From NCBI GenBank assembly GCA_030429235.1, contig JAUIDB010000007.1:52677-116676 (forward strand): a stretch of 64,000 nucleotides of DNA, given 5' to 3'. Of the stretch, positions 25,232 through 41,012 are shown in pieces. Within the stretch, counting starts at the first letter, position 1; each line of letters opens with the position of its first letter. Made by a program: the position numbers and the translations under genes. The notes under the pieces were generated by a model. The model was not told the origin of the DNA. It searched no databases and saw only the letters and a program-made list of their open reading frames with translations. This DNA comes from Thermoanaerobaculia bacterium (GTDB lineage Bacteria; Acidobacteriota; Thermoanaerobaculia; Multivoradales; JAIOJS01).

Positions 25232-26515
25232 TCAGCGGCCGACGGCGAGGGCGACCATCTCGGATTGCGAACGAAGGTAGAGGATGCCGTCGGCCAGGGC
25301 CGGCTGGCCCCAGGTCCGTGCCTTGAAGGGTCGACTCTCGGCGCTGGCTTCGAAGCCATCGGGGGAAGCCTTGCCGATCAGCAGCTGCCCCTGTTCCCCG
25401 AACACGATCAGCTGGCCGTCGGCATAGATCAGCGATCCCTTGCCCAGTCCGCGGTGTCCCCAGTGCTCTTCGCCACTGACCGCGTCGATGCACTTGAGCG
25501 TGCCGTTGTCGAAGCCGTAGATCTTGCCGTCGACCAGGACCGAGCTGTTGAAGTGGTTGCGCATGCCGCGACTCTTCCAGACCTCTCGGGTCACGAAGTC
25601 CTCACCCTCCTTGTCGATACGAAAGAAGGCCGCGCCGACGTCGTAGGCCGAAGAGAAGAAGACCCCGTTCGGGGGCACGAACACCGGCATCGCCGCGTTG
25701 ACGTCGTAGGAGGTGCGCCACGGGATCTCCCAGTAGCGGTCGCCGTTGTCTGCATCGATCGAAACCAGGCCCGCTGCGGTGAAGAAGAGCACCTGGGGCG
25801 TGCCGGCGATGGTCACCGCCAGCGGTGACGAGTAGCCGGGAGACTCGTTGCCCGAGGCCCAGTTGAGAGAGCCGGTCGCGGTGTCGAAGGAGGCCACCGA
25901 GTGTCCGCGGCGTCCGCCGACCTCGACCAGGAGTTGGTCGCCGAGCACCAACGGTGATCCCGAGATCCCCCACTGCGGGATCTTGGCACCGTACTCTTCG
26001 ACCAGGTCGACCTTCCAGCGCACCGTTCCGCTCTCGGCGTCGAGGGCAGCGAGCTTCCCGAGCGCGCCGAGGACGTACACGCTGTCGCCGGCGACGGTGG
26101 GCGTAGCGCGGGGGCCGCCGCCCTGACCATCGGGACGGTCGCGGTCGATGATCTGCTTCCACAGGCGCTGGCCGGTCTTGGCGTCGTGAGCGACGGCCAT
26201 TTCGGTACCGGCCGAGGAGACCAGGGTGTGGACCCGACCGTCCGCGACCGCCATCGACGAGTAGCCTAGGTCTCCCACGTTGACGCGCCAGAGTTCTTGC
26301 GGCCCGGTTTCCGGCCACGCCGCCCGCAGCTTCTCAGTGGCGGCATGGCCATCGCGGTCGTTGCCCCGGTACTGCGTCCAGTCGGCAGCTCCCGCGGGCA
26401 GGGTCAGTAGGGCTCCGAGCGTGGCCACGCAGAGAAGAAAAGGCACGGGGCGGGGGGTCGTGGGCATAGGTCCTCCGGCGGGGTCGAGCGGTTGAAGGTC
26501 AGGTGTAGCGGGCAC
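25232..26515 (-). CDS. PQQ-like beta-propeller repeat protein (secreted)
   Basis: Signal peptide, then DWTQYRGNDRDG, then about eight blades with hydrophobic-Ala-Leu-Asp/GxxxW loops. Confidence 0.75.
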   Translation of the reverse strand: MPATPDLQPLDPAGGPMPTTPRPVPFLLCVATLGALLTLPAGAADWTQYRGNDRDGHAATEKLRAAWPETGPQELWRVNVGDLGYSSMAVADGRVHTLVSSAGTEMAVAHDAKTGQRLWKQIIDRDRPDGQGGGPRATPTVAGDSVYVLGALGKLAALDAESGTVRWKVDLVEEYGAKIPQWGISGSPLVLGDQLLVEVGGRRGHSVASFDTATGSLNWASGNESPGYSSPLAVTIAGTPQVLFFTAAGLVSIDADNGDRYWEIPWRTSYDVNAAMPVFVPPNGVFFSSAYDVGAAFFRIDKEGEDFVTREVWKSRGMRNHFNSSVLVDGKIYGFDNGTLKCIDAVSGEEHWGHRGLGKGSLIYADGQLIVFGEQGQLLIGKASPDGFEASAESRPFKARTWGQPALADGILYLRSQSEMVALAVGR

Positions 26516-27866
26516 CGCGATAGCGGTCGGCGTAGAAGCGCGGGAGCAGCGAGTCGACGCGCAGCAGCCCGTCGGTGGTCAGGACGATCTCGTCGGGCCC
26601 AAAGTCGAGCATTCCTTCGTCGCGCAGGGCGGTGAGCGGCTCGTACCAACGCTGGACGACGTCGACCCCGAACTTCGCGGCAAACGGGGTGGTGGCGAGT
26701 CGACCGAGCTTGAGCTGCAGGATGAACTCCCGGGTGAGACGGTCCTCTTCGCTGGTGACGAAGGCGCGGGCGACCGTCGACTCGCCGCGCGTGGCCCGGG
26801 CGAGGTACTCTCCCCAGCCGTCGAGGTTCTGGAAGTGCACTCCCGACAGGTGCGAGAACGAGGCCACGCCGGTTCCCAGGAGATCGCAGCCCTGCCACAC
26901 CGAGTTGCGGTAGACGAAGCGTTGCTTCGGCTCCTTGACCATGGTGTAGGCGCTCGACTGGTGGTAGCCGGCGGCGGCGAGCTGTTCGAAGGCGTAGAGC
27001 TGCCAGGCGCGCTTCTGGTCCCAGTCGGCGAAGGAGTTGTCGACCTCGCCCTGCATCAGACCCTTGGCGTAGCGGGTGTTGAAGGGCAGTTCGAGTTGGT
27101 AGATGGTCACGCTGTCAGGGGCGAGGTCGACGGTACGGGCGACCGTGTCGCGCCAGGCGGTCCAGTTCTCTCCCACCATGCCGGCGATCAGGTCGATGTT
27201 GAGCTGCTCGAAGCCGAGTTCCTCGATCCACGGCAGGCACCGCCAGATCTCCTTCGAGACGTGGGCTCGGCCGTTCTCGCGCAGCACCTCGTCGTCGAAG
27301 TTCTCGATGCCCAACGACAGGCGGGTGACCCCGATGGCGCGGATCGCCTCCAGTTTGCTGCGGGTCAACGTGCCCGGCTCGCACTCGAAGGTGACCTCTT
27401 CGACCCCGTTCCAGGGCAGGGCTCCCTGCACCCGCTCCACCAGTCGATGGAGGTGCTTGACCGAGAGGTAGGACGGCGTCCCGCCGCCGAAGTAGACAAA
27501 ACGCAGTGGCCGTCCCGCCACGGCGGGCTGCTGAGACAGGGCTTCGACTTCGGCGGCCAAGGCATCGACGTAGCTGCCGATCTCGTCGAAGTTCTTGTCG
27601 GTGTAGACCCGGAAGTAGCAGAATTTACAGCGCTTGCGGCAGAACGGGATGTGGAGATAGAGGCCGAGCGGCGTCGCCGTCTGCGGTGGGCCGCTCAGGG
27701 CCCTTTCGACGGCTGGCACCGCCTCCTCGCTCCAGGCCGAGTACGGGGGGTAGTTCGAGACGAAGACACTGCCGACTTCGGTCTCGGGCGTTGCCATCCC
27801 CGCAGTCGCCGGTTCGGGGCGCTCGATCGGAGGGGTAGAGGAGGTCGAACTGGGGTTCTGCGTCAT
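26499..27866 (-). CDS. HemN-like radical SAM protein (HemW/HemN/ChuW family)
   Basis: CxxxCxxC cluster LYLHIPFCRKRCKFCYF, then GGGTPS. 455 aa. Subfamily cannot be resolved from sequence alone. Confidence 0.8.
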   Translation of the reverse strand: MTQNPSSTSSTPPIERPEPATAGMATPETEVGSVFVSNYPPYSAWSEEAVPAVERALSGPPQTATPLGLYLHIPFCRKRCKFCYFRVYTDKNFDEIGSYVDALAAEVEALSQQPAVAGRPLRFVYFGGGTPSYLSVKHLHRLVERVQGALPWNGVEEVTFECEPGTLTRSKLEAIRAIGVTRLSLGIENFDDEVLRENGRAHVSKEIWRCLPWIEELGFEQLNIDLIAGMVGENWTAWRDTVARTVDLAPDSVTIYQLELPFNTRYAKGLMQGEVDNSFADWDQKRAWQLYAFEQLAAAGYHQSSAYTMVKEPKQRFVYRNSVWQGCDLLGTGVASFSHLSGVHFQNLDGWGEYLARATRGESTVARAFVTSEEDRLTREFILQLKLGRLATTPFAAKFGVDVVQRWYEPLTALRDEGMLDFGPDEIVLTTDGLLRVDSLLPRFYADRYRGARYT

Positions 27867-28306
27867 CTTGGGACCTTCTGCCGCGGTGCTGTCCGGGTGG
27901 TGGTTTGGGGGGAGCTGGGGCGAGCCGGCGGCAGTATAGCAACGGCTACGCCTTAGGTACGGAGGCTACGCCGCAGGGTTGCGGCCAACCCGCCGGCCAC
28001 TCCGAAACACCGTCTCGGGTCCGGTCGGTGCGGTGGGCTCCGGTGCCGGACCAGGCTGGGTTCGGAGGTCATCCGAGGTGCGTCGTCCCGCAGATCGACC
28101 CTCCTCGGACCCAGGGAAAGCCTGGCTGGGGCGAGTCGGATGGCCCGAGTCGCCTGGCGGGAGCTGGGTCCTCTGTCCTCTCTGGCGCGGGAGTGTCATC
28201 TCCCGGGGGCGTCCGGGTGCCCGGAGAGGACGGCCGACGGCAACGACTCGTCGGAGAAGGCCGGCTTGGGGCAGGTGCCGCGGCTGGTATGGTCTGTGCA
28301 GTCAAA

Positions 28307-28326
28307 ACTGTCGAGACATCGACAGT
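28307..28326. promoter_or_regulatory. Perfect 8-bp inverted repeat ACTGTCGA-gaca-TCGACAGT, ~25 bp upstream of the VWFA gene in a locally AT-richer patch
   Basis: Seen directly in the 485-bp divergent intergenic region between the radical-SAM operon and the VWFA gene. Candidate operator or structured 5' leader. Confidence 0.3.
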
Positions 28327-28350
28327 CCTCTACCGACCCGGAGTTTCGCC

Positions 28351-29973
28351 ATGCGACACATCGCCTCCCTTTCTTCTGGCGCGGCCCTGCTACTGGCCCT
28401 GGTCTCGACCTTCCCGGGGGGAGGGGCGCGGCCGGCAGTGGCGCAGGCGAACCCCGGCGCTGGTGTGGAGGCCTTCGGCGAAACCGTCGACGTCCACCTG
28501 GTGACGGTGGAAGTCTCGGTCAAGGCTTTCTTGGGTGAGCGCAACCACATGGAGTTCACCGCCGAAGACTTCGAAATCTACGAGGACGGCGAGCCGCGAC
28601 CGATCACCCACTTCGAGAGGATGGCTGAGGGTCAGATGTCGAGCGTGGTCGCGCCGGTCGCGGCGGCGGGATCTTCCGTCGTCGGCACCCCGCGTACCGT
28701 TCCCCGCTCGGTGGTTCTCGCCTTCGACCTCGCGAGCCTCCGGGGTCACGAGATCCAGCGTGTGGCCCAGCGCGCGTTGCACTACGTCGAGACCTCGGCC
28801 GACCCGACGGTACGCTGGGCGATCGTCACCGTCGGTCCAGGGTCGCGGGTTCTCCTGCCGTTCACCGCTGAAAGGCCTGCCCTGCGGGCGGTCTTGAATT
28901 CGCTCACGGATCAGGCGCCAGGGGTTCCGATCATGGGCTGGGGAGTCGGTTCGTTCATCGATCTGCCCGAGCCAGCGCCCGAGGAGCCTCTTCCTACTGA
29001 CCAGGAGCGGTTCGCTGATCTCCAGTCGGTGGACCAGCTTATCGGGTACAGCACGTCTCGCGTGGCCAAGATGCGGGCGCACGCCCTCTTCGACTCGTTG
29101 CGCCAGCTGCTGCAAGGTTGGTCGAGCCTCGAGGGCGCCAAGGACCTGGTGATGTTCTACCGGCCGGGCCTGAGCTACCTACCCCCCAACTCGGGCCGGG
29201 TCTCGATCTCGGACCTGCACCAGATCCACGAGGAGGTCGAGGACGTGGCCCGCTGGGCGGCGGCGGCTGGTTTCAGCCTGCACGCTCTCGACGCAGGGGG
29301 CTTGTCGAATCCGGCCGTGGATGACCAGGCTCGAAGCCTGACAGACGGGCATACGGTGCCCCAGGCCCTGGCGGTGGAGAGCGGAGGCCGCCACCTGGCT
29401 CTCAACGATCTCGGGCGGGGCCTCGATCTGGCCACCGACCGTTCCCGCAATCACTATCGGCTCTCCTTCCAGGTCGCGCGGGCCGCCGATGGCCGGGAGC
29501 ACGAGATCGAGGTCAAGCTGCGGCACCCCGGGCTGTTCCGGGTGCGGCACCCGACCACCTACCTCGACCTGACTCCGCGGCAGCGGCTGCTGCACCAACT
29601 CGCGACTTCGGCCAACATTCCCAAGACGGCGGATCGGCTACCGGTGGCTCTGGTGGTTCGGGTCCTGCCCGAACGGAAGGGTCGGATGCCCCTGCACGCG
29701 TTGCTCTCGGTTCCGGCCGAGCGTCTCGGGCTACTCTGGGACGAGGAGCGGCGGACCGCCGAGGTCGAGTTCTTTCTCGCCGTCTACGACGCGCGGGGGG
29801 AGCTGATGGCGGTCGAGAGCGAACGACGCAGTGTCGAGCAGCCGGCGACCGGCGAGCAGCTCAGCCAGGTGTTCTCGACCGAGCTACCGGCCGGGAACTA
29901 CACCATCGCCATGGAGGCGCTCGACACCGTCGATGGCAACGTCGGGATGGACTACGCTCAGATCCACCCCTAG
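28351..29973 (+). CDS. VWFA-related Acidobacterial domain protein (TIGR03436-like)
   Basis: ATG at 28351 (MRHIASLSSGAALLLALVS). Signature N-terminal block VDVHLVTVEVSVKA...FTAEDFEIYEDGEPRPITHFER. The track ORF starts earlier (27979) in the same frame, but the signal peptide begins at 28351. Confidence 0.75.
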   Translation: MRHIASLSSGAALLLALVSTFPGGGARPAVAQANPGAGVEAFGETVDVHLVTVEVSVKAFLGERNHMEFTAEDFEIYEDGEPRPITHFERMAEGQMSSVVAPVAAAGSSVVGTPRTVPRSVVLAFDLASLRGHEIQRVAQRALHYVETSADPTVRWAIVTVGPGSRVLLPFTAERPALRAVLNSLTDQAPGVPIMGWGVGSFIDLPEPAPEEPLPTDQERFADLQSVDQLIGYSTSRVAKMRAHALFDSLRQLLQGWSSLEGAKDLVMFYRPGLSYLPPNSGRVSISDLHQIHEEVEDVARWAAAAGFSLHALDAGGLSNPAVDDQARSLTDGHTVPQALAVESGGRHLALNDLGRGLDLATDRSRNHYRLSFQVARAADGREHEIEVKLRHPGLFRVRHPTTYLDLTPRQRLLHQLATSANIPKTADRLPVALVVRVLPERKGRMPLHALLSVPAERLGLLWDEERRTAEVEFFLAVYDARGELMAVESERRSVEQPATGEQLSQVFSTELPAGNYTIAMEALDTVDGNVGMDYAQIHP

Positions 29974-31136
29974 CGACGGTCGGCCTCGGGCGCGGCACCA
30001 AAGGCCAACAGCAGGCCATCGAGGTTGCCCAAGATCAGGTATCCGTTGCCGACCGCGGGCGAGGCGGTGAAGTCGCTGCCGCCATCAAACTGCCAACGGA
30101 CGCTGCCGTCCGCCAGATCGAGGGCGTACAGATGACCGCTGAGCGACGCGACGAAGACCCGGTCTCCGACGATGACTGGCGACGAGTCCACCCGGGCTGG
30201 AGTCGAGTGGCTCCAGATCAGGGAGCCGGTCGTCAGGTCGAGCGCGTGGACCCGTTTGTCGCGACCGCCGATCACGGCGCGGCCGTCGCGCACGGCCGGC
30301 GACGAGTAGAAGGGGAACTCGCTCGACGGCGGGTCGTAGCTCCACTGCGTGGCCGCTTTCTCGAGATCGATCCCCAGGACGCGGCTCTCCATCGTGCCCA
30401 CGATGGCTTGACTTCCCACGATGGCGGAGCTTCCGGCGAGGATCGCACCGAGGTCCGCCTGCCGCCGCTCCGCACCGGTGGCAGCGTCGATCTCGCGGAA
30501 GACGCCATCGCACCCGCCGACGAACAACGACCCACCGACCACCGCCGGAGTGGCGTTGACGTAGGAGGCGGTCTCCAACTTCCAGGCCAGCGAACCATCC
30601 TTCTTCTGCAGGGCGTAGACGAACTGGTCGTAGGAGCCGAACAGCACGAGATCGCCGAAGAAGTTGGCCGAGGAGGTGATCCCACTGTCGGCGAGAAAGC
30701 TCCAACGCTGCTCGCCCGTGGTGCGATCGAGGGCGTGGAAGACGCCCCCTTCGTCGCCCAGGTAGAGGGTGTCGCCCAGGACCGAAGGAGAGGATTTGAT
30801 CGGGTGCTCGGCCACGAACTGCCAGCGTTCACCGCCGGTGGCGAGGTCCAGAGCGTAGACGTGCCCGGCGTCGCTGGCCACGTAGACCGTATCGCCGACG
30901 ATGGCCGCGGTCGACTCGATGCCGCCCTCGGCATCGAAACTCCACAGCGGAACGAGCTCCGCCGGCAGCGGGTCGGTGGCGACGCCGGTCAACGCGGCGT
31001 CGCCGCGGAAGGAGGGCCAATCCGCCGCCGCCGTCGAGGCCAGTGCGAGTCCGGTGCCGATCAACAGGAGCCGGCCGAGGGGCCGGAAGCCAAGGCTGCC
31101 CAGCCGGGTTCGGGGGTGGGGGTCAAGCAACGCCAC
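29970..31136 (-). CDS. PQQ-like beta-propeller repeat protein
   Basis: GTG at 31136 with AGGAGC SD 6 nt upstream. Signal-like N-terminus, then DWPSFRGDAALTG and repeated blades. Confidence 0.7.
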   Translation of the reverse strand: MALLDPHPRTRLGSLGFRPLGRLLLIGTGLALASTAAADWPSFRGDAALTGVATDPLPAELVPLWSFDAEGGIESTAAIVGDTVYVASDAGHVYALDLATGGERWQFVAEHPIKSSPSVLGDTLYLGDEGGVFHALDRTTGEQRWSFLADSGITSSANFFGDLVLFGSYDQFVYALQKKDGSLAWKLETASYVNATPAVVGGSLFVGGCDGVFREIDAATGAERRQADLGAILAGSSAIVGSQAIVGTMESRVLGIDLEKAATQWSYDPPSSEFPFYSSPAVRDGRAVIGGRDKRVHALDLTTGSLIWSHSTPARVDSSPVIVGDRVFVASLSGHLYALDLADGSVRWQFDGGSDFTASPAVGNGYLILGNLDGLLLAFGAAPEADRR

Positions 31137-32307
31137 GGTAAAGCTCCTCGAAGTCGGACGCCGTGAGAGGGCGTGGATTGTAGGTACCGGTCCACTCCTC
31201 GGTGGCGAGGGCGGCGAGTTCGGCCCAACGGCCCGCCTCCACTCCGAGTGCGCCGAGCCCGTCGGGGAGGCCGAGGCTGCGACCGATCTCCTGCAGTCGG
31301 GCCGCCAGCGTGGCCGCACCGCCCAGGGCCTCGTAGCGGCTCGCGACCTCGGAGTCCGCACCGTTGAAGCGAACCACCGCCGGCAGCAGCAGTCCAACCG
31401 CCACGCCGTGCCGCACCCCGCAGCGTGCCGTCAGGGGATTGGCGGCGGCGTGGGCCGCACCGAGCATCGATTGTTCGATGGCGGCGCCGGCCAGGTGGGC
31501 CCCGAGGGCCATGCGACCGAGGGCCGACTCGCTCCCGGCCAGCGCCTCCTCCCACGCGGGTTCCAGGAGGTGCCAGGCGAGCAGCGACAGGGTGCGAGAG
31601 GTCGGGGTGGCGGCGCGGCTCACCAGGCTCTCTACGGCGTGCGACAGGGCATCGAGCGCGGCGGCGGCCGCGATCGCCGGGGGGGCGGTGGCCAGGATCG
31701 ACGGGTCGAGTAGCACCGCCGAGTAGCGAGCTCCGGCGGCGCCACACGCCATCTTGCGCCCACTTTCGGGATGGGAGAGCACCGCGTAGGCCTGGGCCTC
31801 CGAACCGGTGCCGGCGGTGGCCGGAATCGCCACGGAGGGCCACATCGGTTCGCTGGTTTCGACGTAACCCCAATAGTCGGCCATCTTGCCCCCCTGGGTC
31901 AGCAGAAGGTGCAGACCCTTGGCGGCGTCGAGCACGCTGCCCCCGCCGAGGGCGACCAGGCTGTCGATCGGTTCGTCCCGCAGCCGTCCCGCCGTCGCTT
32001 CGACCCACTCGGTGGTGGGATTCTCGGTGACTTCGTCGACCACGATCGGTTCCAGTCCAGCCGCGGCGAGCGAGTTCCACACCACGTCGACCTGACCGGC
32101 GTCGGTCATGCCGCGGTCGGTGATGAGAAGAGGCGTCTGTCCCCGACCAGCGATCCAGGCACCGGCCCGGTCGGCGTAGCCGATCCCGGCGTGCAGCTCG
32201 ATCCCGGCGAGTCGGGCCGTCCAGGGGTCGGCCCCGCGCCGCGACTGGAGCAGCGGCGGCAGTCGGCGGAGTGCGGCCAGATCACGGCGCGCCTCCGCCT
32301 CGGACAT
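31123..32307 (-). CDS. Iron-containing alcohol dehydrogenase
   Basis: ATG (MSEAEARRDL). Motifs LVALGGGSVLDAAKG and GTGSEAQAYAVLSHPESGRK. About 394 aa. Confidence 0.8.
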   Translation of the reverse strand: MSEAEARRDLAALRRLPPLLQSRRGADPWTARLAGIELHAGIGYADRAGAWIAGRGQTPLLITDRGMTDAGQVDVVWNSLAAAGLEPIVVDEVTENPTTEWVEATAGRLRDEPIDSLVALGGGSVLDAAKGLHLLLTQGGKMADYWGYVETSEPMWPSVAIPATAGTGSEAQAYAVLSHPESGRKMACGAAGARYSAVLLDPSILATAPPAIAAAAALDALSHAVESLVSRAATPTSRTLSLLAWHLLEPAWEEALAGSESALGRMALGAHLAGAAIEQSMLGAAHAAANPLTARCGVRHGVAVGLLLPAVVRFNGADSEVASRYEALGGAATLAARLQEIGRSLGLPDGLGALGVEAGRWAELAALATEEWTGTYNPRPLTASDFEELYRGVA

Positions 32308-32318
32308 CAGGTAGCCGG

Positions 32319-33788
32319 TCACCGGGGTGATGGACTCCCAGCGCTCGTAGCGAGGTCGTGCTGCAACGCGCGCTGCTCGAACAGGTGGTGGAACAGGTTC
32401 CCCTCGTGCGGTTGATCCCACGATACCCGAGTGGTGGGAATCGCTCCCAGGTTGAGTCGGTCGACGCGCCGGTCGTCGAGGAAGCGTCGCTGGAATCCGG
32501 GGTCGTCACTGATCACCGACAGCACCAACGTCTCGCCCAGGTGATCGATCAGTTGCTCTGTGGGAGCTTCGACGATCGTGACCAGCGGGAAGAGCAGCTC
32601 GGTCTGAGCCAGCAGGTGGGTCGGGTCGTCGGTGTAGAGGACGGTGGGGAGAAGGAAACTCGAGCCGTCGACGGTGGCGACCCGGCCCGCCGCTCCCGGA
32701 TCCCGGAACCGAGCGGTGAGGTCCTCGGCGCGGCCGCCGGCCAATCGTTGCTCGACGAACTGCGAGACCGCCTCGGCGGCCGCCGCCGAGGGTTGGGCTG
32801 CCAGGGCCGCCGCCGGGTCGTCGAGGGCGCGAGCCGGAATCGTGGACAGCTTTTCGGCCAGGGCCAGACCGAACTGGTGACCGTGCGATGGCATCCACAC
32901 TCCCGAGGCGTTGATGCAGGAACGTCCGCCGTTGGCCGCCACCGACTCGGCGACGAGCTCCAGGTGATCGGCGGCTCGCGCCGCGCAGTCGGGGCCGAAG
33001 AGCACCTTGCTCCAGCCGGGGCCGTGCAGCTGCACGCCCGGGTCGTGGCGCCAGGGGGCGACGGTGGCGCGATCGCCGAACAGCAGGGAGCGTCCACTGC
33101 GCAGCAAGATCTCGGCCGCACCGGCATGGCTCGTCGGGTAGATCCCGAGCATGGCGGGTGGGGTACCGGCGGCGAGCAGCGCCTGGGCGATGCGCATCGG
33201 TGTCCAGGGCTCCTGGCGACCCGGTTTCAGGGCGAGACAGGTCTTCAGGGCCAGGGCCGGAATCCACAGAGAGTGGACCCCCGGGGAGTTCGAGGGCAGA
33301 ACGGCACCCAACAGGTCGCTGGTGCGTCGGAACGAGACCATCCGCTCGTCCTCGTGCCAACCGTCGTCGATCGCGTCGAGGGGAAGGTCGCGGGTCAGGC
33401 CAGCCAGCACCCGCTCCATCTCGCGTAGGACGAAGGCAATCTTGTCCATGTTGCGCCGGCCCATCGCCAGCGGCATGCCGGTGGTGGCGGCGAGGTGGGC
33501 GAGATAGTCCTCTCGGCCGTGCGACCGCTGGCCCGCCGGTAGTTCGCCGTCGAGGAAGAGCTCGGCGGCCTTCCCGCAGATCCCCACCAGCTCCTCGCAG
33601 CGGATGCCGTCGCGGAGCGACCGCGCCTCGGCCTGGGTCTCGGTCAGGTCGCGAGCGATGAGCCCGGGGTTGGCTAGAGAGAGCTCGGCGACACGTTGGC
33701 CGGTACGGAGATCGGCCAGCGGCTGGACGTCGAGGCTACGGTAGGGCGAACCGCGCCGCAGAACGGGTAGGTGCAACACCGGATCCAA
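32319..33788 (-). CDS. Aldehyde dehydrogenase superfamily protein, LuxC-like acyl-CoA/acyl-protein reductase
   Basis: 489 aa. ALDH-like catalytic region HGPGWSKVLF...ANGGRSCINASGVWMP (Cys in a GQxCxAxSR-like context). Lies 5 nt downstream of the adenylating-enzyme gene. Confidence 0.65.
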   Translation of the reverse strand: MDPVLHLPVLRRGSPYRSLDVQPLADLRTGQRVAELSLANPGLIARDLTETQAEARSLRDGIRCEELVGICGKAAELFLDGELPAGQRSHGREDYLAHLAATTGMPLAMGRRNMDKIAFVLREMERVLAGLTRDLPLDAIDDGWHEDERMVSFRRTSDLLGAVLPSNSPGVHSLWIPALALKTCLALKPGRQEPWTPMRIAQALLAAGTPPAMLGIYPTSHAGAAEILLRSGRSLLFGDRATVAPWRHDPGVQLHGPGWSKVLFGPDCAARAADHLELVAESVAANGGRSCINASGVWMPSHGHQFGLALAEKLSTIPARALDDPAAALAAQPSAAAAEAVSQFVEQRLAGGRAEDLTARFRDPGAAGRVATVDGSSFLLPTVLYTDDPTHLLAQTELLFPLVTIVEAPTEQLIDHLGETLVLSVISDDPGFQRRFLDDRRVDRLNLGAIPTTRVSWDQPHEGNLFHHLFEQRALQHDLATSAGSPSPR

Positions 33789-33793
33789 GGTCC

Positions 33794-34912
33794 CTAGTAC
33801 ACCCCGACCACGACCGACTCGCCGAAGCGCTGGAAGAGCCGCAGACCACTGACGCCATCCCAGGGATAGGCGACGATCGGCGCCTCGCGCTCCCCCTCGT
33901 CTCGCTCCAGGAATCGAGGCATGAAGAACTCGCGGGTCAGGGTGGTGAGCATGACGCGTCCGGTCTCGCCGTAGTCCACCGTACGGGACGGGTCGTCGGG
34001 GTCGACCAGATCGAAGATCGCACGCGGATGCGGCGGGTAGTAGGTGATGGTGTAGTCCGGATCACCACCCCCCTCCGGCTCGGCGACGAAGGGCCGCGAG
34101 CAGGCCAGCCCCATCAGGGTGTTGCCGTAGGTCGGGATGAAATCGATGCCAGGCACCAGCTCCTCGCGTGCGAAGCGGTGGAACTGAGCGTTCATCTCGG
34201 TACCGCCGCAGAAGATCCCGCGGATGCCGAGCTTGACGAGAGAGACCTTCTCGCAGAGCGCCTCCAGCAGTTTGGGGGTGGTGAAGAGGCAGCGGACCCC
34301 GTCGTGGCCCCGCAGGATCTTGAGCGCCTGATCGATCACGTGCTCCTTGTAGGCGGCCATCTCCTGGTGGCGGCCGCCTCGCACCAGTTTGTTCACCCAG
34401 CGTGGGTCGAGGTCGACGTGGAAGGCGGCTCCTCCCCGGTGTTGGGCCAGGTGCTCGATCGCCAGACGGAGGCGGCGCGGTCCAGTGGGGCCCAGCATCA
34501 GCCAGTCGCTGCCGGGGGGAAAGCTCTCGTCCGACAGAGTGTCGCTGTAGAGCTCGTAGTCGGTCTGGAAGTCGCGGATGTTGATGCGGCTCTTGGGCAG
34601 GCCGGTGCTGCCGCCGGTTTCGAAAACGTACAGCGGCTGTCCCGCCAATCCCTGGGGCACCCACCGTCGGATTGGCCCACCGCGCAACCACTCGTCCTGG
34701 AAGTGGCCGAGGCGATGCAGGTCGGCGTAGCCGCCGATGACGTCTCGGGGATCGAAGTCGAGACCTTCGGCGTATTCGAGCCAGAAGGGACAGCCCGTGG
34801 CCCGATCGAAGTGCCAGGCGACCATCTCGCGCACGTGAGCGTCGAGGCGCTCACGGGCGTCCGCGATCGCCTCGGCTCCCGCCGGAGCCGCCAGAGCCGC
34901 GGCGTCGCTCAC
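33794..34912 (-). CDS. LuxE/PaaK-like adenylate-forming enzyme (acyl-protein synthetase / phenylacetate-CoA ligase-like)
   Basis: AMP-binding P-loop-like motif FETGGSTGLPKS. GTG at 34912 overlaps the stop of the upstream PQQ gene (GTGA). The track ORF extends to 34978. Confidence 0.65.
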   Translation of the reverse strand: MSDAAALAAPAGAEAIADARERLDAHVREMVAWHFDRATGCPFWLEYAEGLDFDPRDVIGGYADLHRLGHFQDEWLRGGPIRRWVPQGLAGQPLYVFETGGSTGLPKSRINIRDFQTDYELYSDTLSDESFPPGSDWLMLGPTGPRRLRLAIEHLAQHRGGAAFHVDLDPRWVNKLVRGGRHQEMAAYKEHVIDQALKILRGHDGVRCLFTTPKLLEALCEKVSLVKLGIRGIFCGGTEMNAQFHRFAREELVPGIDFIPTYGNTLMGLACSRPFVAEPEGGGDPDYTITYYPPHPRAIFDLVDPDDPSRTVDYGETGRVMLTTLTREFFMPRFLERDEGEREAPIVAYPWDGVSGLRLFQRFGESVVVGVY

Positions 34913-36333
34913 CGTCCCTCCGCGCCCTTCTCGGCCGCCTCGGCGGGAGCGGGTTTGGCTCCCTCGGCGATCGCCCACAGGTGGTTGCGGGTGGCCACGT
35001 AGAGCACGCCGTCTTCCGCCACCGGCGTGGTGTAGGTCGCGCTGCCCATGTTGATCTCGTCGATCACCTCGAGCTCCTTGCCGGTCTTCAAGATGGCGAT
35101 ATCGCCATCTTCGTCCCCCATGTAGACCTTGCCGTCGGCGACGAAGGCGGAACCCCAGACGGCGGCGAAAGCATCGTAGGTCCAGAAGTGTTCACCGGTG
35201 TTGGCATCGAGAGCGTAGAGACGACCGGAGAGGTCCGGGATGTACAGGATCCCGTCGGCGATCGCGGCGGTGGAGATCGTGCGTCCGAACTCCTCGCCTC
35301 CGCGGTGCCAGACGGCGCCGCTGGCCGTGATGTCGCCGCTGCCGGAGGCGTCGATGACCCAGAAGTTCCCGGGGCCCTCTCCGTGCTCGGGGTCCTGACC
35401 GACCCCGATGTAGACCTTGCCGTCGTGGAACACCGGCGTGCCCACCAGGTTGTTGCGGGTTCCCATGCCCCCGAGCTCCCAGATGGAGTCCTTGGGGTTG
35501 GTGTCGAACTTCCAGATCAGCTTGCCGCTCTTGGGGTCGAGGGAGTAGACCCAGCCGTCGCCCCCCGGGAAGATCACCTGGGCTCGCCCGCCGGCTTCGC
35601 CGTAGGCCGGGTTCGACCACTGACCGTGCAGGATGTTGCCAGCCGGGAGATCGCTCTCCCACACCAGTTCGCCGGTCCTCTTGTTGACGGCGATGAAGCT
35701 AGGGCCGAGCGGGGAGGGGATATTGACGTGCCCTTCGTCGACGCCGTTGCCGGTGACGGTGAACAGGATGTCGCCGATGATCAGGGGGCTCCCGGCGGCC
35801 AGGTTGTGGGGGAAGACATCGAGTTCTTCGATCATGTCGAGCGACCACTTGGTGTCCCCGGTCGCGGTTTCGGCCGCGATGACGTGGGCCTTGTTCGACA
35901 CGTAGTAGATCGTCTCGCCCTCGATGTAGGGCGTCGAGCAGATTCCCTGGTAGGGCCAATCGTGGACCCGGCCGGCGGACAGCTTGTCGTGCACCACCTG
36001 CCAACGGAAGTCACCGCTCTCCTTGTCGAACGCCATCAGAACGCCTTTGTCGCCCTGGATCGAAGGATCCCGCGGCACTTCGTTGTTGGTGCCGATGTAC
36101 ACCGCGTCGCCGGCGACCACCGGGCCACCGTAGCTCTGTGACCCGAGGGCCTGGTCCCACTTGATGTTCTCGCCGCTGTCCGCGTCCCAACCGGCGGGCA
36201 GGTTCTTGGCCGAGGAGACCATGTTGCGAGAGGGCGTGCCGCCGAACATGGCGGGATCGGAGGCGATGCCCGGGGCGGCGAGAGCACCGACCGCGAGAAA
36301 CGAGACGAGCGAGCGAAGGACAGAACAGTTCAT
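34909..36333 (-). CDS. PQQ-like beta-propeller repeat protein (secreted)
   Basis: ATG (MNCSVLRSLVSFLAVGALAAPG signal peptide), then DPAMFGGTPSRN and eight blades. ATGA overlap with the upstream gene. Confidence 0.75.
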   Translation of the reverse strand: MNCSVLRSLVSFLAVGALAAPGIASDPAMFGGTPSRNMVSSAKNLPAGWDADSGENIKWDQALGSQSYGGPVVAGDAVYIGTNNEVPRDPSIQGDKGVLMAFDKESGDFRWQVVHDKLSAGRVHDWPYQGICSTPYIEGETIYYVSNKAHVIAAETATGDTKWSLDMIEELDVFPHNLAAGSPLIIGDILFTVTGNGVDEGHVNIPSPLGPSFIAVNKRTGELVWESDLPAGNILHGQWSNPAYGEAGGRAQVIFPGGDGWVYSLDPKSGKLIWKFDTNPKDSIWELGGMGTRNNLVGTPVFHDGKVYIGVGQDPEHGEGPGNFWVIDASGSGDITASGAVWHRGGEEFGRTISTAAIADGILYIPDLSGRLYALDANTGEHFWTYDAFAAVWGSAFVADGKVYMGDEDGDIAILKTGKELEVIDEINMGSATYTTPVAEDGVLYVATRNHLWAIAEGAKPAPAEAAEKGAEGR

Positions 36334-38552
36334 GAAGGGTTCCTCGTGACAGTGATGTTGTCGAAGTAGATCGGGCTGGGGGAGAAGCCGTAGAGGCCCG
36401 GGCTTCCGGTCTGAATCCCGTGGGGGTCCTCGACCTCCAGGGTCCAGGCGTCCGGCTCGGGAGCCTCCTTCTTCCACACCTTGGCGCGGATCACGGTGGC
36501 GCTACCGCGATTCTCGACCTGCATCTTGGCGCGGTACCAGACTCCCATCTCCCAGGGGAAGTCGATCTGCTGCCGCATGCGGAGAGCCGAACCCCAGGAC
36601 CGGATCTCGAGTTTCTGGTGGGCGCCGAGAAGATCCAGGGTGTACCCCTGGGCCAGCAGTCCCATGTCCGCGCGCTTGCGTCCGGTCTGGGTTCCCATGA
36701 GGTCGGCGCTGATGGTGTAGTCGTGGTCGTCGTAGCGGCCCAGGAAGGTGATGTGCCGGTGGATCTTGACCGGCGAGGGGTTCTTGGCCAGAACATGCCC
36801 GTCGACTCCCTCCTTCTCCTCGACCTCGAAGCGGCCGACGTATCCGAGGAAGTAGCTGGGTCGCGAGCCGACCTCGGTGTGGTCGAAGTCTTCGGTGATC
36901 GGTAGCCCAGTGAGCACGCGCAACCGGGCGCGACCGGTGACTCCGCCGACCGTGGCCGAGATCTGTCCGCTGTGCGAGGCGGCTTGCGGAGAGGGGGTGA
37001 ACGTGCCGTCGGGACCGATCGTGCCCGCGGCGCCGTCGACGGTCCAGGTCACCTCGGCCGAACGATCGATGGGCCGACCCTTGGCGTCGTAGAGTCGCAC
37101 CGCGAACTGCGCCGTCTCGTCGCGGGTCAGGTGGACCTCGCCCGGAACGACCTGGACGGTAGCGATCGCGGCGTCGGCCGGCGCGCTCTCGGGGGCCTTA
37201 GGGGCCGCAGTCTCGGCCGCCTCAGGGCGCCATTGGCCGAGGGCGTAGATCCCCTCCTCGGTGGTGAAGAACACGACGCCATGGCTCACGGCAGGCGAGC
37301 CGTAGACCTCGGCGTAGCGTCCCTCCGGCATGGTGAGTTCTTTCTTGTCGAGGATCGTGCCTCCCTCGTCGCCAGGCTTGACGATCAGGAAGTGACCGTT
37401 CACCTCGGTGACGTAGAGCTTGCCGTCAGCCCATACCGGTGACCCCTTGCCCACGGTGCCTAGGTTGAGTTCCCACAGGTGGGAGCCGTCCTTGGCTGAC
37501 AGAGCGTGCAGGTTGGCGGAGTTGTCGACGACGTAGAGTCGGTCGCCCTTGGCCACCAGCGAGGAGAAACCGGCGCCCACTGGCGAGCGCCAGATCTCAT
37601 GACTGGTGGTGACATCCCCGCTGCCGGTGGCATCGATCGCCACGATTCGCCCCATGGAGCCACCGTCGAGGTTCTCTTCACTGTGACTGGCGTACACGGT
37701 GGTGCCTTCGACCACCACGGAGGTGTTGATACCGCGCTTCGACAGGCCGTATCCCCAGACCTGCTCTCCGGTCCGAGCGTCGACGGCGAAGATCCAGCCT
37801 CCCCCGTTGCCGTGGATGGCGAGTCGACGACCGTCGACCTCGGCGATGTTGACGGTCGATTGCGAGTTCTTGTCAGCCATCGAGGAGGCGGGCGAAGAGC
37901 GCCACAGCAGGTCGCCGGTGCGCTTGTCGAAGGCGTAGAGTCGGTGGAGGGGACGAGACTCGGCGCCCCAGTTGGTCGAGGCGAAGGTGACGATGACGCG
38001 GTCTTCGTCGACGGTCGGGGTCTGGGTACGGCCGCCGTAACCCTCCATGAACCCGTACTCCTCGATCAGGTTTTTCTCCCAGACGACCCGCCCGTCGCGG
38101 CTGTCGAGGCAGAGGAAGGTGCCACCGACGCCCTGCACGTACAGGTATCCGGTCTCGGCGTCGGCCGTCGGATTGGCCCAGCCGACCCGATTCCAGGGGA
38201 CTGTGGTCTGGTAGACGTTGAACCGGTACTCCCACTGCTTCTCGCCGGTGGCGGCGTCGAAGCAGGCCACCATCTCCTGGCGGTCGATTCCCTCGCCGGC
38301 CCGCCCGTTGGCACAGACCCGGCCGTCGAGGACCACCGGCGTCGACCGGCCGGTGAAGTCCTGCCGCCAGAGCAGGTTCTCGCCGTCGAGCGACCACGAG
38401 TCGACCAGTCCGGTCTCGGTGGACACGCCGTTGCGCTGCGGACCCCGCCAGTTGGCCCAGTCGTCGGCGATCGAGGCGGTGGTGGTGGCGATCAGGAAGA
38501 GCGCGGCGAGCCCTCCCCAGCCCGCCCGTCGGGCGATTGAATACTGTTGCAT
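36330..38552 (-). CDS. PQQ-like beta-propeller protein with C-terminal Ig-like and beta-sandwich extension
   Basis: ATG (MQQYSIARRAGWGGLAALFLIATTTASIADDWANWRGPQRNG). Propeller spans ~450 aa. Then an Ig-like segment (TVQVVPGEVHLTRDETAQFAVRLYD) and a ~220-aa domain. Confidence 0.75.
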   Translation of the reverse strand: MQQYSIARRAGWGGLAALFLIATTTASIADDWANWRGPQRNGVSTETGLVDSWSLDGENLLWRQDFTGRSTPVVLDGRVCANGRAGEGIDRQEMVACFDAATGEKQWEYRFNVYQTTVPWNRVGWANPTADAETGYLYVQGVGGTFLCLDSRDGRVVWEKNLIEEYGFMEGYGGRTQTPTVDEDRVIVTFASTNWGAESRPLHRLYAFDKRTGDLLWRSSPASSMADKNSQSTVNIAEVDGRRLAIHGNGGGWIFAVDARTGEQVWGYGLSKRGINTSVVVEGTTVYASHSEENLDGGSMGRIVAIDATGSGDVTTSHEIWRSPVGAGFSSLVAKGDRLYVVDNSANLHALSAKDGSHLWELNLGTVGKGSPVWADGKLYVTEVNGHFLIVKPGDEGGTILDKKELTMPEGRYAEVYGSPAVSHGVVFFTTEEGIYALGQWRPEAAETAAPKAPESAPADAAIATVQVVPGEVHLTRDETAQFAVRLYDAKGRPIDRSAEVTWTVDGAAGTIGPDGTFTPSPQAASHSGQISATVGGVTGRARLRVLTGLPITEDFDHTEVGSRPSYFLGYVGRFEVEEKEGVDGHVLAKNPSPVKIHRHITFLGRYDDHDYTISADLMGTQTGRKRADMGLLAQGYTLDLLGAHQKLEIRSWGSALRMRQQIDFPWEMGVWYRAKMQVENRGSATVIRAKVWKKEAPEPDAWTLEVEDPHGIQTGSPGLYGFSPSPIYFDNITVTRNPS

Positions 38553-38658: not shown

Positions 38659-39231
38659 TCAGAGGTTTGCGGAATCGGTGGTCGGGGTGGCCACTTCCAC
38701 CGTTGCGGGTTGCGTTTGGGGTGGCGCCGGGGTCGGCTTGTAGAGGGTGACCAGGCCACCGCCGATCGCGGCCAGGGCGATGCCGGCCACGAACTGCCAG
38801 CGCAGGCCTCCCCAGCCTCCGGCCGGGGGGTGCAGGGCGGTGGCTACGATGGCGTTGACGATGGGCGCACCGGCAAAGATGATGCTCATGACCACGGCGG
38901 GAGTGCCCTTGGCGCCGAAGGCGAGGAGCACACAGAACGCGCCGGCGGCTCCCACCAGGCCGGCGAGCAGTGACCACAGCACGCCGCTGGACGGGAAACT
39001 GAAGGCGTTGCCCGCACTGCGCTGGCTCGCCAGGATCGCCAACGGGGCGAGCACCGCGGTCAGGAAGTAGGCGATGCCGACGAAGAGGAACGCCTTGTAG
39101 CGCCCGAGGTCGGGGTCCTGCATCTGCACCTGTCCCTTGTGCAGGAAGATCCCGTAGAGCCCCCAGGTGGCCACCGTCATCAGGGCGAAGAGCAGCCAGG
39201 TCATCGAAGTCGGGTGGGAAGCAGCAGTCAT
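38659..39231 (-). CDS. Hypothetical small integral membrane protein (4-5 TM)
   Basis: 190 aa with hydrophobic helices. No recognisable family. Confidence 0.45.
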   Translation of the reverse strand: MTAASHPTSMTWLLFALMTVATWGLYGIFLHKGQVQMQDPDLGRYKAFLFVGIAYFLTAVLAPLAILASQRSAGNAFSFPSSGVLWSLLAGLVGAAGAFCVLLAFGAKGTPAVVMSIIFAGAPIVNAIVATALHPPAGGWGGLRWQFVAGIALAAIGGGLVTLYKPTPAPPQTQPATVEVATPTTDSANL

Positions 39232-39488: not shown

Positions 39489-41012
39489 GTGAGGGAACCT
39501 CCATTGGAACATCCGACGATCATCCAGGGTGGTATGGGTGTCGCTGTCTCAGGCTGGCGACTGGCTCGTACCGTGTCGCGAACCGGCCAGCTCGGAGTCG
39601 TCTCCGGCACGGCCCTCGACACCGTTCTGGTTCGGCAACTGCAGGACGGAGATCCCGGGGGCCACCACCGACGCGCGATGGCGCGCTTTCCGATCGTCGG
39701 GGTTGCCGATCGGGTCCTCGAGACCTACTTCGTCGAGGGCGGCAAGGGCGCCGAGGTTCCCTACGCCCTGGTTCCCAAGCCGAGACTCCCCCTGAAGCAG
39801 CACTACCTCGAACTCCTGGCCCTAGGCAACTTCGTCGAAGTCACCCTGGCCAAGGAGGGGCACGATGGCCAGGTGGGCATCAACTTCCTGGAGAAGATCC
39901 AGATCCCGACCCTGGCCTCGCTCTACGGAGCCATGCTCGCCGGGGTCGACTACGTGCTCATGGGAGCGGGGATCCCGCGCGAGATCCCCGGGGCCATGGA
40001 TGCCTTCGCCGAGGGTCGGAAGGCCGAACTGTCGATCTACGTGCAAGGGGCTCAGAAGGGCGAGGTCACGACAACGGAGGTCGATCCCGCCGCCCTGGGC
40101 TGGCCGACGCCACCGAAGCGGCCCTACTTCCTCGCCATCGTGGCTTCGGTGTCGTTGGCGACCATGCTGTCGCGCAAAGCGACCGGTCACGTCGACGGTT
40201 TCGTCATCGAACGGGAGACGGCCGGGGGGCACAACGCGCCTCCCCGCGGCAAGCTGCAGCTCTCGGAGAGTGGGGAACCGATCTACGGACCTCGCGACGT
40301 GGTCGACCTGGAGCAGATCCACCACTTGGGGCGCCCCTTCTGGCTCGCCGGAGCCTGCGCCAGTCCCCAGTCGGTGGCCGAGGTTCAGGCCTTCGGCGGT
40401 CAGGGCGTACAGATTGGCACGACCTTCGCCCTGTCACGGGAATCCGGCCTGCACGGGCCGATCCGCGACGAACTCCTACGGCGGGCATCGGCCGACCGGC
40501 TGAAGGTTCGCACCGACGCCCGTGCCTCTCCCACCGGTTTTCCCTTCAAGGTGGTCGAGATCGAGGACTCCATCGCCGAGGACTCGACCTACCGGCAGCG
40601 GCAGCGAGTCTGCGACCTGGGCTACTTGCGCACGGTGTTTCGGAAAGAGAACGGAGGCCTCGGCTACCGCTGCGCCTCGGAGCCGATCAAGACCTATGTC
40701 GCGAAGGGGGGGCTCGAGGAGGACACCGAGGGCCGTCGTTGTCTCTGCAACGCGCTCCTGGCCACCGTCGACATGCCCCAGGCCCTCGACGACGGCAGCC
40801 ACGAGATCCCGATCGTCACGTCCGGGGACGACTACTCCCTGGCCCGCAAGCTGCTGCTGGCCCACGGCGGTTCGTACTCGGCGACGCAGGTGATCGACTA
40901 TCTGCTCGGGCGCGAGCCGGCCGTCGGGACCGAGGACGCCCTCGTGGCAGATCCCGGCGTGGCGAGCGATCCCGCCACCGAGGGGGAGCCGGCTCTGGTT
41001 GGACGCACCTAG
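39489..41012 (+). CDS. Nitronate monooxygenase (NMO / 2-nitropropane dioxygenase-like FMN enzyme)
   Basis: N-terminal EHPTIIQGGMGVAVS motif. TIM-barrel length. GTG start. Confidence 0.8.
   Translation: MREPPLEHPTIIQGGMGVAVSGWRLARTVSRTGQLGVVSGTALDTVLVRQLQDGDPGGHHRRAMARFPIVGVADRVLETYFVEGGKGAEVPYALVPKPRLPLKQHYLELLALGNFVEVTLAKEGHDGQVGINFLEKIQIPTLASLYGAMLAGVDYVLMGAGIPREIPGAMDAFAEGRKAELSIYVQGAQKGEVTTTEVDPAALGWPTPPKRPYFLAIVASVSLATMLSRKATGHVDGFVIERETAGGHNAPPRGKLQLSESGEPIYGPRDVVDLEQIHHLGRPFWLAGACASPQSVAEVQAFGGQGVQIGTTFALSRESGLHGPIRDELLRRASADRLKVRTDARASPTGFPFKVVEIEDSIAEDSTYRQRQRVCDLGYLRTVFRKENGGLGYRCASEPIKTYVAKGGLEEDTEGRRCLCNALLATVDMPQALDDGSHEIPIVTSGDDYSLARKLLLAHGGSYSATQVIDYLLGREPAVGTEDALVADPGVASDPATEGEPALVGRT

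Follow-up and report, generated by a model that had tools for sequence, protein, structure and literature searches.

A conserved gene cluster of mostly uncultured bacteria that combines a predicted EhpF/EhpG-type carboxylic-acid reductase with exported beta-propellers

EhpF, of the D-alanylgriseoluteic acid pathway, is an atypical ANL enzyme without a C-terminal domain, and the EhpF/EhpG enzyme type has so far been known only from a few phenazine pathways. EhpF and EhpG were reportedly proposed by Bera and colleagues in 2010 to turn phenazine-1,6-dicarboxylate into the 6-formyl compound. An aldehyde intermediate is described in reviews as confirmed for related Xenorhabdus pathways. We analysed a stretch of 64,000 nucleotides (the window) from a Thermoanaerobaculia bacterium (Acidobacteriota; GenBank assembly GCA_030429235.1, contig JAUIDB010000007.1, positions 52,677 to 116,676), in which six minus-strand genes encode an adenylating enzyme, an aldehyde dehydrogenase (ALDH)-like protein, an iron-containing alcohol dehydrogenase (Fe-ADH) and three exported beta-propellers (PQQ-A, PQQ-B and PQQ-C). 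The adenylating enzyme and its ALDH-like partner probably form an EhpF/EhpG-type two-protein carboxylic-acid reductase that yields an aldehyde. With the other four genes they make up the upstream half of a longer conserved cluster, which has about 16 genes, spans about 27 kb and runs from window position 39231 down to 12065.

Sponge "Halo_AMP" clusters have been reported to hold an AMP-binding enzyme, a flavin halogenase, a radical S-adenosylmethionine (SAM) enzyme, a TonB transporter and a PQQ-like domain "at high frequency"; they occur in Acidobacteriota and Poribacteria, and their adenylation-site residues are extremely conserved (bioRxiv 10.64898/2026.08.03.742642). That preprint (August 2026) assigns no function, proposes a link to barettins, speculates about brominated alkaloids and focuses on a P450-containing variant (bioRxiv 10.64898/2026.08.03.742642). 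It searched sponge metagenomes for clusters of a halogenase with an AMP-binding enzyme and did not identify the EhpF/EhpG pairing. The cluster of the window is by no means confined to sponges and was also seen in metagenomes from sediment, soil and water. Because the same cluster is found so far outside sponges, a sponge-specific product is argued against, and the recent claim of sponge-specific brominated alkaloids from such clusters is reframed. Beyond the preprint, the present analysis identifies the core pair as EhpF/EhpG-type, sets out an architecture of 16 genes, counts synteny across loci and places the cluster far outside sponges. A literature search found no publication describing the function of this cluster, and we regard the whole system as an uncharacterised, widely distributed variant built on a known but rare enzyme pair.

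The core enzymes and their relatives

The six co-directional genes (29970-38552) were supported alike by the open reading frame (ORF) listing, a filter based on GC3 and the gene calls on an identical public contig, and all ORFs named in the initial annotation are present. Its quoted junctions were read again from the sequence and hold: an ATGA overlap joins PQQ-A to PQQ-B (36330/36333), a GTGA overlap joins PQQ-B to the adenylating enzyme (34909/34912), and the TAG that ends the latter is separated by 5 nt from the TTG start of the ALDH-like gene at 33788 (the public gene call on the identical contig places this start at GTG 33779). Two further coupled junctions were added, namely a 4-nt GTGA overlap between the ALDH-like and Fe-ADH genes, which sets the Fe-ADH start at 32322, and a 14-nt overlap between Fe-ADH and PQQ-C, which sets the PQQ-C start at 31136. 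The motifs FETGGSTGLPKS and GGRSCINASG are found in the adenylating enzyme and the ALDH-like protein, respectively. Signal-peptide-like N-termini were seen on PQQ-A, PQQ-B and PQQ-C and on none of the three enzymes. The core enzymes and the exported propellers are, with little doubt, expressed as one translationally coupled unit.

The adenylating enzyme gave a weak Pfam match to PF00501 (24.5 bits, under the cut-off), and phmmer against the PDB aligned its residues 26-372 to residues 23-366 of the EhpF chain (3L2K/3HGU; E=1.2e-43). It terminates where EhpF (366 aa) terminates, and neither form of the C-terminal lid domain (PF13193 or PF14535) was detected even at E≤10. The P-loop ETGGSTGxPK is invariant in 94 orthologues. 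A tblastn search against plasmids found EhpF-type homologues with 34-37% identity in Streptomyces and in the phenazine clusters of both Pantoea and E. coli, and some of them carry the NCBI name "arylcarboxylate reductase". In the ehp/phz cluster of an E. coli plasmid the EhpF homologue is followed by an "aldehyde dehydrogenase family protein", which is EhpG; BLASTP of the window's ALDH-like protein against this EhpG gave E=4e-35 over nearly the full length.

Membership of the ALDH-like protein in the ALDH superfamily, with a GGRSCINASG cysteine motif, was rightly read in the initial annotation: PF00171 matches at 4e-12 (45.9 bits), the catalytic Cys291 is kept in 86/86 orthologues and the oxyanion Asn167 in 88/88. 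The general-base Glu, which lies in the ELGGKS motif of hydrolytic ALDHs, is His255 in 87 of 88 orthologues and Gln in EhpG, and on this replacement a hydrolytic, acid-forming aldehyde dehydrogenase was ruled out. By established ALDH mechanism, a thiol ALDH that lacks the hydrolytic base would be expected to reduce an acyl-thioester rather than to form an acid. Because the hydrolytic Glu is replaced by an invariant His, the ALDH-like partner would thus reduce its thioester instead of hydrolysing it. The third enzyme is an iron-containing alcohol dehydrogenase, as had been annotated, with PF00465 (7e-37, 126.9 bits) and PF25137 (89.3 bits) both over the cut-off and with the GGGS nucleotide motif and the Asp/His metal ligands (D..H, H..H) readable in the sequence.

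The window pair shares with EhpF/EhpG of Pantoea agglomerans a stand-alone ANL N-terminal adenylating enzyme of about 360-370 aa directly followed by an ALDH-fold protein in which the Cys is kept and the general-base Glu is absent, full-length homology of both proteins and the proposed conversion of a carboxylate to an aldehyde. It differs in that identity to the Ehp proteins is about 27-37% and that the window group is one tight cluster, always found among exported propellers. An unrelated context (L170:421-2909; loci are designated by L and a number) holds an EhpF-like gene of 43% identity with an ALDH gene once more immediately behind it, and the EhpF/EhpG-type pair therefore behaves as a unit that travels together. 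The surroundings of this pair include an AMP-binding/hydrolase fusion, a methyltransferase and a Phenol_MetA_deg porin.

The initial annotation had named the two proteins LuxE/PaaK-like and LuxC-like, and these family names were not borne out. Searches at E≤10 returned only PF00501 for the adenylating enzyme, which rules out LuxE (PF04443), and only PF00171 for the ALDH-like protein, which rules out LuxC (PF05893); the PaaK phenylacetate-CoA ligase was ruled out by the lack of both a PF14535 and an NCBIfam PaaK match, and a type I carboxylic acid reductase (CAR) by profile searches. The chemical logic that had been drawn from LuxE/LuxC and CAR stands. LuxC/LuxE likewise activate an acyl group with ATP, transfer it to an ALDH-superfamily thiol enzyme and reduce it with NADPH to the aldehyde, whereas the window has no LuxE/LuxC domain, LuxD-type transferase or luciferase and its context points to aromatic chemistry. 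Type I CARs (A-PCP-R, e.g., Nocardia CAR) carry out the same net conversion of acid, ATP and NADPH to aldehyde; in the window there is no carrier-protein domain, phosphopantetheine arm or SDR-type reductase, and two separate proteins share the work, the reductase having an ALDH fold.

Judged from these sequences, the core trio probably converts an acid through the aldehyde to a primary alcohol, and a path from carboxylate to acyl-adenylate and acyl-enzyme, aldehyde and alcohol would be its most economical reading. The EhpF-like enzyme would adenylate the carboxylic acid; it has no ANL C-terminal domain for a thioester-forming half-reaction, and the acyl group would be handed to Cys291 of the EhpG-like protein. 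The acyl thioester on Cys291 would then be reduced by NAD(P)H to the aldehyde, and Fe-ADH would reduce the aldehyde to the primary alcohol. Should the core assignment be right, no other group of EhpF/EhpG-type two-protein carboxylate reductases comes near this one in size or conservation, and the enzyme type could potentially serve as a carrier-protein-free route from acids to aldehydes.

Conservation and extent of the cluster

More than 8000 relatives of the adenylating enzyme, a lower bound, were found in a protein collection clustered at 90% identity, and between phyla the identity is about 75%. The best 120 relatives are 73-88% identical and nearly all without names, and identity across phyla is 71-88%. 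In a 50%-identity library the whole orthologous group is represented by one full-length sequence, and the next full-length relatives are 43-45% identical. A scan of one genome per species gave at least 565 relatives, from which 80 loci were retained; these come from Acidobacteriota (Thermoanaerobaculia), many Poribacteria (closed chromosomes included), Calditrichia and KSB1, with further bins labelled Cytophagia, Polyangiaceae and Acanthopleuribacteraceae. The cluster is conserved in hundreds of mostly uncultured bacteria of several phyla.

Window proteins were searched by tblastn against the retained loci, and order and strand were unchanged. Synteny was counted over loci with enough flank, with Fe-ADH, PQQ-C and the radical SAM gene counted within 10 kb (last column of Table 1). 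The counts for PQQ-A, PQQ-B and the ALDH-like gene bear out the linkage of enzymes and propellers that the initial annotation had put forward, and the block of two propeller genes, the AMP-binding gene and the ALDH gene was also seen in separate look-ups of one Calditrichia and one KSB1 genome. Chance falls far short of explaining an arrangement whose order is repeated in dozens of loci and in several phyla.

The conserved unit extends past the six genes first described. Mapping from loci anchored on the radical SAM gene, together with tblastn, gave the conserved order M190, PQQ-A, PQQ-B, EhpF-like, EhpG-like, Fe-ADH, PQQ-C, radical SAM, PQQ-D, TonB receptor, halogenase, SSF symporter, glycosyltransferase family 4 (GT4), thioesterase, ATP-binding cassette (ABC) ATPase and FtsX permease (Table 1). 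The full order through the GT, thioesterase, ABC ATPase and FtsX genes was found in six metagenome contigs (L093, L094, L097, L110, L114 and L119, with L093 lacking the SSF gene), and L098 and L112 show the same order with no thioesterase match; the MacB-type exporter stands at the cluster end in all eight. M190, for which profile searches found no Pfam family, has orthologues of 61-76% identity at the same position in nine loci (L006, L007, L010, L020, L093, L094, L097, L119 and L165).

The added members are well defined, the radical SAM enzyme, the halogenase and the TonB receptor among them. The radical SAM enzyme, whose gene comes after PQQ-C in other loci too, matched HemN (1e-35) and the methyltransferase NocN (7e-30) in the PDB, and its CxxxCxxC and GGGTP (second-SAM) motifs are invariant in 107 sequences; its score is under every equivalog cut-off (HemN, ChuW, HemW and HemZ). 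PDB matches of the halogenase range from 2e-62 (8ZOP) to 1e-47 and comprise 8ZOP, CndH, PltA, Bmp2, Mpy16 and CmlS. Its motifs are GGGPAG at 52, WLWFIP (WxWxIP) at 259 and the catalytic Lys113, and WLWFIP and Lys113 are invariant in 44-46 orthologues. The nearest structures to the TonB receptor, which has a signal-like N-terminus, are all metallophore receptors: the enantio-pyochelin receptor (1e-43), PiuA/PirA/Fiu, FhuA and CntO/FoxA.

Table 1. Genes of the conserved cluster, in transcriptional order, followed by neighbouring genes of the window
Feature	Position	Strand	Length	Assignment	Synteny (loci)
M190	38659-39231	-	190 aa	membrane protein, five transmembrane (TM)-like segments; first gene of the block in Acidobacteriota
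PQQ-A	36330-38552	-	740 aa	exported 8-bladed PQQ_2/BamB-like propeller with Ig-like domain and ConA/CBM66-like beta-sandwich	61/67
PQQ-B	34909-36333	-	474 aa	exported 8-bladed propeller; best conserved of the propellers	60/67
EhpF-like	33794-34912	-	372 aa	stand-alone adenylating enzyme, ANL N-terminal domain only
EhpG-like	32319-33788, or from GTG 33779	-	489 aa, or 486 aa	ALDH-superfamily thiol reductase	65/67
Fe-ADH	31123-32322	-	399 aa	group III iron-containing alcohol dehydrogenase	32/59, within 10 kb
PQQ-C	29970-31136	-	388 aa	exported propeller, PF13570 (Beta-prop_ACSF4) type	27/59, within 10 kb
Radical SAM	26499-27866	-		HemN-like (class C type), PF04055	24/59, within 10 kb
PQQ-D	25232-26467	-		fourth exported PQQ_2 propeller, signal-like N-terminus; position after radical SAM gene conserved
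TonB receptor	22952-25117	-		TonB-dependent receptor, siderophore-receptor family; TIGR01783 277 bits vs cut-off 223.5
Halogenase	21604-22971	-		flavin-dependent, phenol/pyrrole type; PDB halogenase matches
SSF symporter	19959-21521	-		sodium:solute symporter, PF00474; 12 TM-like segments; nearest families PanF, PutP, MctP; conserved after halogenase
GT4	18634-19962	-		glycosyltransferase, PF00534 and PF13439; ATGA overlap with SSF gene; conserved in L093-L119
Thioesterase	16141-16578	-		4HBT-type hotdog thioesterase, PF13279 and PF03061; conserved after GT
MacB-type ABC exporter	12065-16144	-		ATPase 15479-16144 (PF00005) and duplicated FtsX permease 12065-15466 (FtsX, MacB_PCD)
VWA gene	27979-29973	+		Acidobacteria-type VWA-domain protein (TIGR03436)
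Interrupting gene	16659-18050	-		between GT4 and thioesterase
Interrupting gene	18077-18637	+		between GT4 and thioesterase
Upstream divergent genes	39489-43679	+		NMO-like flavoprotein, SSADH-like aldehyde dehydrogenase, LytTR-type two-component system
Fifth propeller	10542-12068	+		PQQ_2
Transporter and receptor genes	5101-7197, 7553-8590, 8281-10566	+		TAXI/TRAP-type transporter (NMT1_3 and DctM), second TonB-dependent receptor
Repeat-protein genes	48340-51117 and 59175-63767	+		large FG-GAP/ASPIC(UnbV) repeat proteins

Distant variants from peat and soil metagenomes keep the trio of radical SAM enzyme, halogenase and thioesterase. In two of them (L159:6720-15128 and L165:6984-19463) a PaaK-like ligase (PF14535) stands in place of EhpF/EhpG, together with a large TonB-like CarboxypepD_reg outer-membrane protein, the radical SAM enzyme, the halogenase, in part the thioesterase, and PQQ_2 propellers; L165 retains orthologues of M190, PQQ-A and PQQ-B. 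The theme of an acid-activating enzyme with a radical SAM enzyme, a halogenase, a TonB-type receptor and propellers therefore predates the version in the window. An uncharacterised 354-aa protein in L165 was considered as an ALDH and rejected.

Poribacteria loci show additions of their own. A gene of about 233 aa resembling a Vgb-lyase beta-propeller lies between the EhpF-like and EhpG-like genes in 39 of them, and an M19 dipeptidase and a sulfatase recur further downstream (examples of these genes are L080:11361-12152, L046:15341-16687 and L041:16972-19110).

As a genomic signature the cluster is widespread and uncharacterised, and it marks uncultured bacteria of ecological importance, among them sponge symbionts and Acidobacteriota of sediment and soil. 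It also gives a functional handle on PQQ-like/BamB-like propellers, which abound in such genomes while almost none has been explained.

The propellers, the product and rival explanations

PQQ_2 was found by Pfam in PQQ-A, PQQ-B and PQQ-C, which with their signal-like N-termini agrees with the three secreted PQQ-like propellers of the initial annotation. The predicted extra C-terminus of PQQ-A was seen in its AlphaFold model (pLDDT 89.7) as an Ig-like domain (about 465-547) and a beta-sandwich (about 550-740); the latter is ConA/CBM66-like and lectin-like by fold search alone, with no match in the sequence-profile search against the PDB. The fold search also likened the PQQ-A propeller to the BamB-like Rv3035, whose structure was determined as a complex with FecB, a siderophore-binding protein. 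PQQ-C matched PF13570 at 173.9 bits (cut-off 133 bits), its position after Fe-ADH being conserved. PF13570 is the propeller family that is fused to an adenylating enzyme in animal ACSF4, and the ACSF4/AASDH-type eukaryotic enzymes thus also associate an ANL adenylating enzyme with a PQQ-like propeller; they differ from the window, where the propellers are separate and exported and so do not share a compartment with the adenylating enzyme.

PQQ-B was modelled as an 8-bladed propeller (pLDDT 83.5, pTM 0.86), and Foldseek placed it nearest to BamB, YxaL, pyrroloquinoline quinone (PQQ) alcohol dehydrogenases and a cofactor-less tetrathionate hydrolase. Its identity is 57-73% across phyla and 62-73% among the best 120 relatives, with the polar motifs TNNE, DWPxQGxC, FPHNLA, NGVDEGH, LHGxWxN, GQDPEHGEG and GDEDG invariant. 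The structure prediction suggested in the initial annotation as a way to find a ligand pocket gave the 8-bladed fold, the fold matches being generic and several of the invariant PQQ-B motifs sitting in the sole low-confidence loops of the model. The earlier suggestion of binding or scaffold partners is a possible one, but the invariant polar loops of PQQ-B would suit a site that binds a ligand or metal, or an active site, better than they would suit a passive scaffold.

Two characterised classes were rejected for the propellers. PQQ-dependent dehydrogenases do not apply at 53-91 bits against a cut-off of 480 and 29-46 against 833 (TIGR03075/TIGR03074), and the BamB lipoprotein does not apply at 54-153 bits against the TIGR03300 cut-off of 285, the N-terminal regions having Ala-x-Ala-type ends and no lipobox Cys. 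The propeller fold is common to PQQ dehydrogenases and BamB alike, and the fold searches gave generic 8-bladed propellers only.

We infer the role of the propellers and the nature of the product from the neighbouring genes, among which the phenol/pyrrole-type halogenase and the TonB receptor of the pyochelin/catecholate class point to a small aromatic or metallophore-like molecule. Tentatively, we favour the reading of the whole as a cluster that makes, exports and re-imports a small, tailored, probably aromatic and possibly metal-binding compound. A fuller model of tailoring, export, periplasmic handling and re-uptake, built on gene content, is possible but rather doubtful. In it, the substrate would probably be a small aromatic acid, possibly set free when the 4HBT thioesterase cleaves a CoA thioester; the HemN-like radical SAM enzyme would C-methylate or rearrange the compound, the flavin-dependent halogenase would halogenate it and GT4 would glycosylate it. 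The MacB-type pump, M190 or both would export the product, and once in the periplasm it would be bound or matured by the four exported 8-bladed propellers, PQQ-A contributing the lectin-like domain and PQQ-B its enzyme-like invariant polar loops, and the product or its metal complex would re-enter through the siderophore-class TonB receptor and the Na+/solute symporter.

Such a scheme would follow the logic of a metallophore production, export and re-uptake cycle. Siderophore systems such as that of pyoverdine (PvdMNOPQ, PvdRT-OpmQ, FpvA) likewise mix cytoplasmic assembly genes with exported periplasmic proteins, a MacB-type exporter and a siderophore-class TonB receptor. They differ in that the window has no non-ribosomal peptide synthetase (NRPS) or scaffold synthetase, its propellers are unrelated to Pvd enzymes and no iron-regulation signal was found.

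Several results weigh against this reading of a small exported and re-imported compound. No scaffold-building enzyme (NRPS, polyketide synthase, NIS synthetase or chorismate-utilising enzyme) and no flavin reductase is present in the conserved block, and no phz/ehp core gene occurs anywhere in the 64-kb window. The EhpF/EhpG chemistry itself is demonstrated in part only in the available literature. The halogenase, TonB receptor and symporter are found mainly in Acidobacteriota-type loci, the 10-kb flanks of Poribacteria loci ending before that region, and a TARA ocean contig (L168:7818-11482) carries a PQQ-A/PQQ-B pair with a 4-nt overlap and no adjoining EhpF/EhpG. As to regulation, no E. coli-type Fur box was found, a consensus that is uninformative in a 68% GC genome; Rfam gave no riboswitch or other match over the whole window; and the region upstream of the first gene, aligned in nine loci, has no conserved motif.

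An unlikely alternative is a lipid route, close to the fatty or amphipathic alcohol or aldehyde of the initial annotation, for which no direct support was found. Here the thioesterase would free a fatty acid, the EhpF/EhpG-like pair and Fe-ADH would convert it to the fatty aldehyde and fatty alcohol, GT4 would make an alkyl glycoside or glycolipid, and the MacB-type pump with the propellers would carry it to the outer membrane. The export of heterocyst glycolipids by HglT and DevBCA offers a parallel; a hotdog thioesterase, GT4 and a MacB-type ABC exporter are all in the cluster, the propellers share the fold of BamB, an envelope-assembly fold, and the lectin-like domain of PQQ-A could bind a sugar head group. 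However, the characterised or named relatives of the adenylating enzyme use aryl acids, no LuxE, LuxC or FAR domain was detected, the substrates of flavin halogenases in this clade are electron-rich aromatic rings, and the siderophore-class TonB importer and the symporter would have no obvious part in lipid export.

Quite unlikely is an uptake and catabolism locus in the manner of polysaccharide-utilisation loci, in which the TonB receptor would import a compound from the environment (e.g., an aromatic acid or conjugate), the propellers would process it in the periplasm, the symporter would internalise it and the cytoplasmic enzymes would transform it. A TonB receptor with periplasmic proteins and a symporter is the usual layout of such loci, and the distant variants pair the radical SAM enzyme and halogenase with a PaaK-like ligase, a typical catabolic activating enzyme. 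"Tryptophan-halogenase-like" genes beside TonB receptors are common in carbohydrate-uptake loci of Proteobacteria, which also counts for this explanation. On the other side, reducing a carboxylate to an alcohol at the expense of ATP and halogenating with O2 belong to anabolism or tailoring, GT4 and the MacB-type exporter suggest export rather than breakdown, and no ring-cleavage or beta-oxidation genes are present.

A bolder reading, which we consider decidedly unlikely, takes the propellers as a new class of periplasmic enzymes or receptors whose partner molecule (a cofactor, substrate or metal carrier) would be supplied by the interleaved cytoplasmic enzymes as a halogenated, methylated aryl aldehyde or alcohol; the whole would be a self-contained periplasmic chemistry module with no characterised counterpart. 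If true, it would be a module of uncultured Acidobacteriota, Poribacteria, Calditrichota and KSB1 comparable to PQQ with its quinoproteins, or to a lanthanophore or siderophore with its enzymes.

Maturation of a protein-derived cofactor is highly improbable. By analogy with QhpG/QhpD/QhpF of quinohemoprotein amine dehydrogenase and with LodB/GoxB, residues in one or more propellers, or in a putative small subunit, would be modified before export by the halogenase-like flavoprotein together with the radical SAM enzyme. A propeller with a radical SAM enzyme, a flavoprotein and an ABC exporter resembles the qhp operon, the flavoprotein also matches the QhpG, LodB and GoxB models (147, 106 and 86 bits), and the propellers are not PQQ enzymes by sequence. 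Yet the flavoprotein is far closer to true halogenases (2e-62 vs 3e-6 for QhpG) and keeps an invariant halogenase Lys and WxWxIP, the radical SAM enzyme belongs with HemN and not with the SPASM type, the intergenic gaps inside the cluster are too short for a small-subunit or precursor-peptide ORF, and the EhpF/EhpG/Fe-ADH trio would be left unexplained. A coincidental neighbourhood of unrelated genes, which has next to no chance of being correct, is contradicted by the same order in several phyla, co-occurrence of about 90% and translational coupling.

Neighbouring genes of the window

Three genes of the window break the conserved order and are absent elsewhere. The VWA gene lies between PQQ-C and the radical SAM gene, and because this position is empty in all other loci it is an insertion specific to the source genome. 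The other two, between the GT4 and thioesterase genes, are missing in other loci; one encodes a 463-aa exported protein with about 10 repeats of the type "...LLAFRIHGVTPxFI..." and spurious Pfam matches only, and the other a 186-aa protein of no family. Upstream, the divergent NMO-like, SSADH-like and LytTR-type genes adjoin the cluster only in contigs identical to the window. We treated the NMO-like, SSADH-like and VWA genes and the pair at 16659-18637 as neighbours or insertions that are not conserved with the cluster. A promoter and terminator scan stayed at background level.

Near the PQQ-A/PQQ-B pair of the ocean contig L168 lie a CarboxypepD_reg outer-membrane protein, a GWxTD protein and a MacB/FtsX permease. 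In the window, the gene of the fifth propeller converges on the end of the FtsX permease gene, and the TAXI/TRAP-type transporter and second TonB-dependent receptor are encoded upstream of it. A thioredoxin/AhpC-like domain is either fused to one of the large FG-GAP/ASPIC(UnbV) repeat proteins or comes after it.

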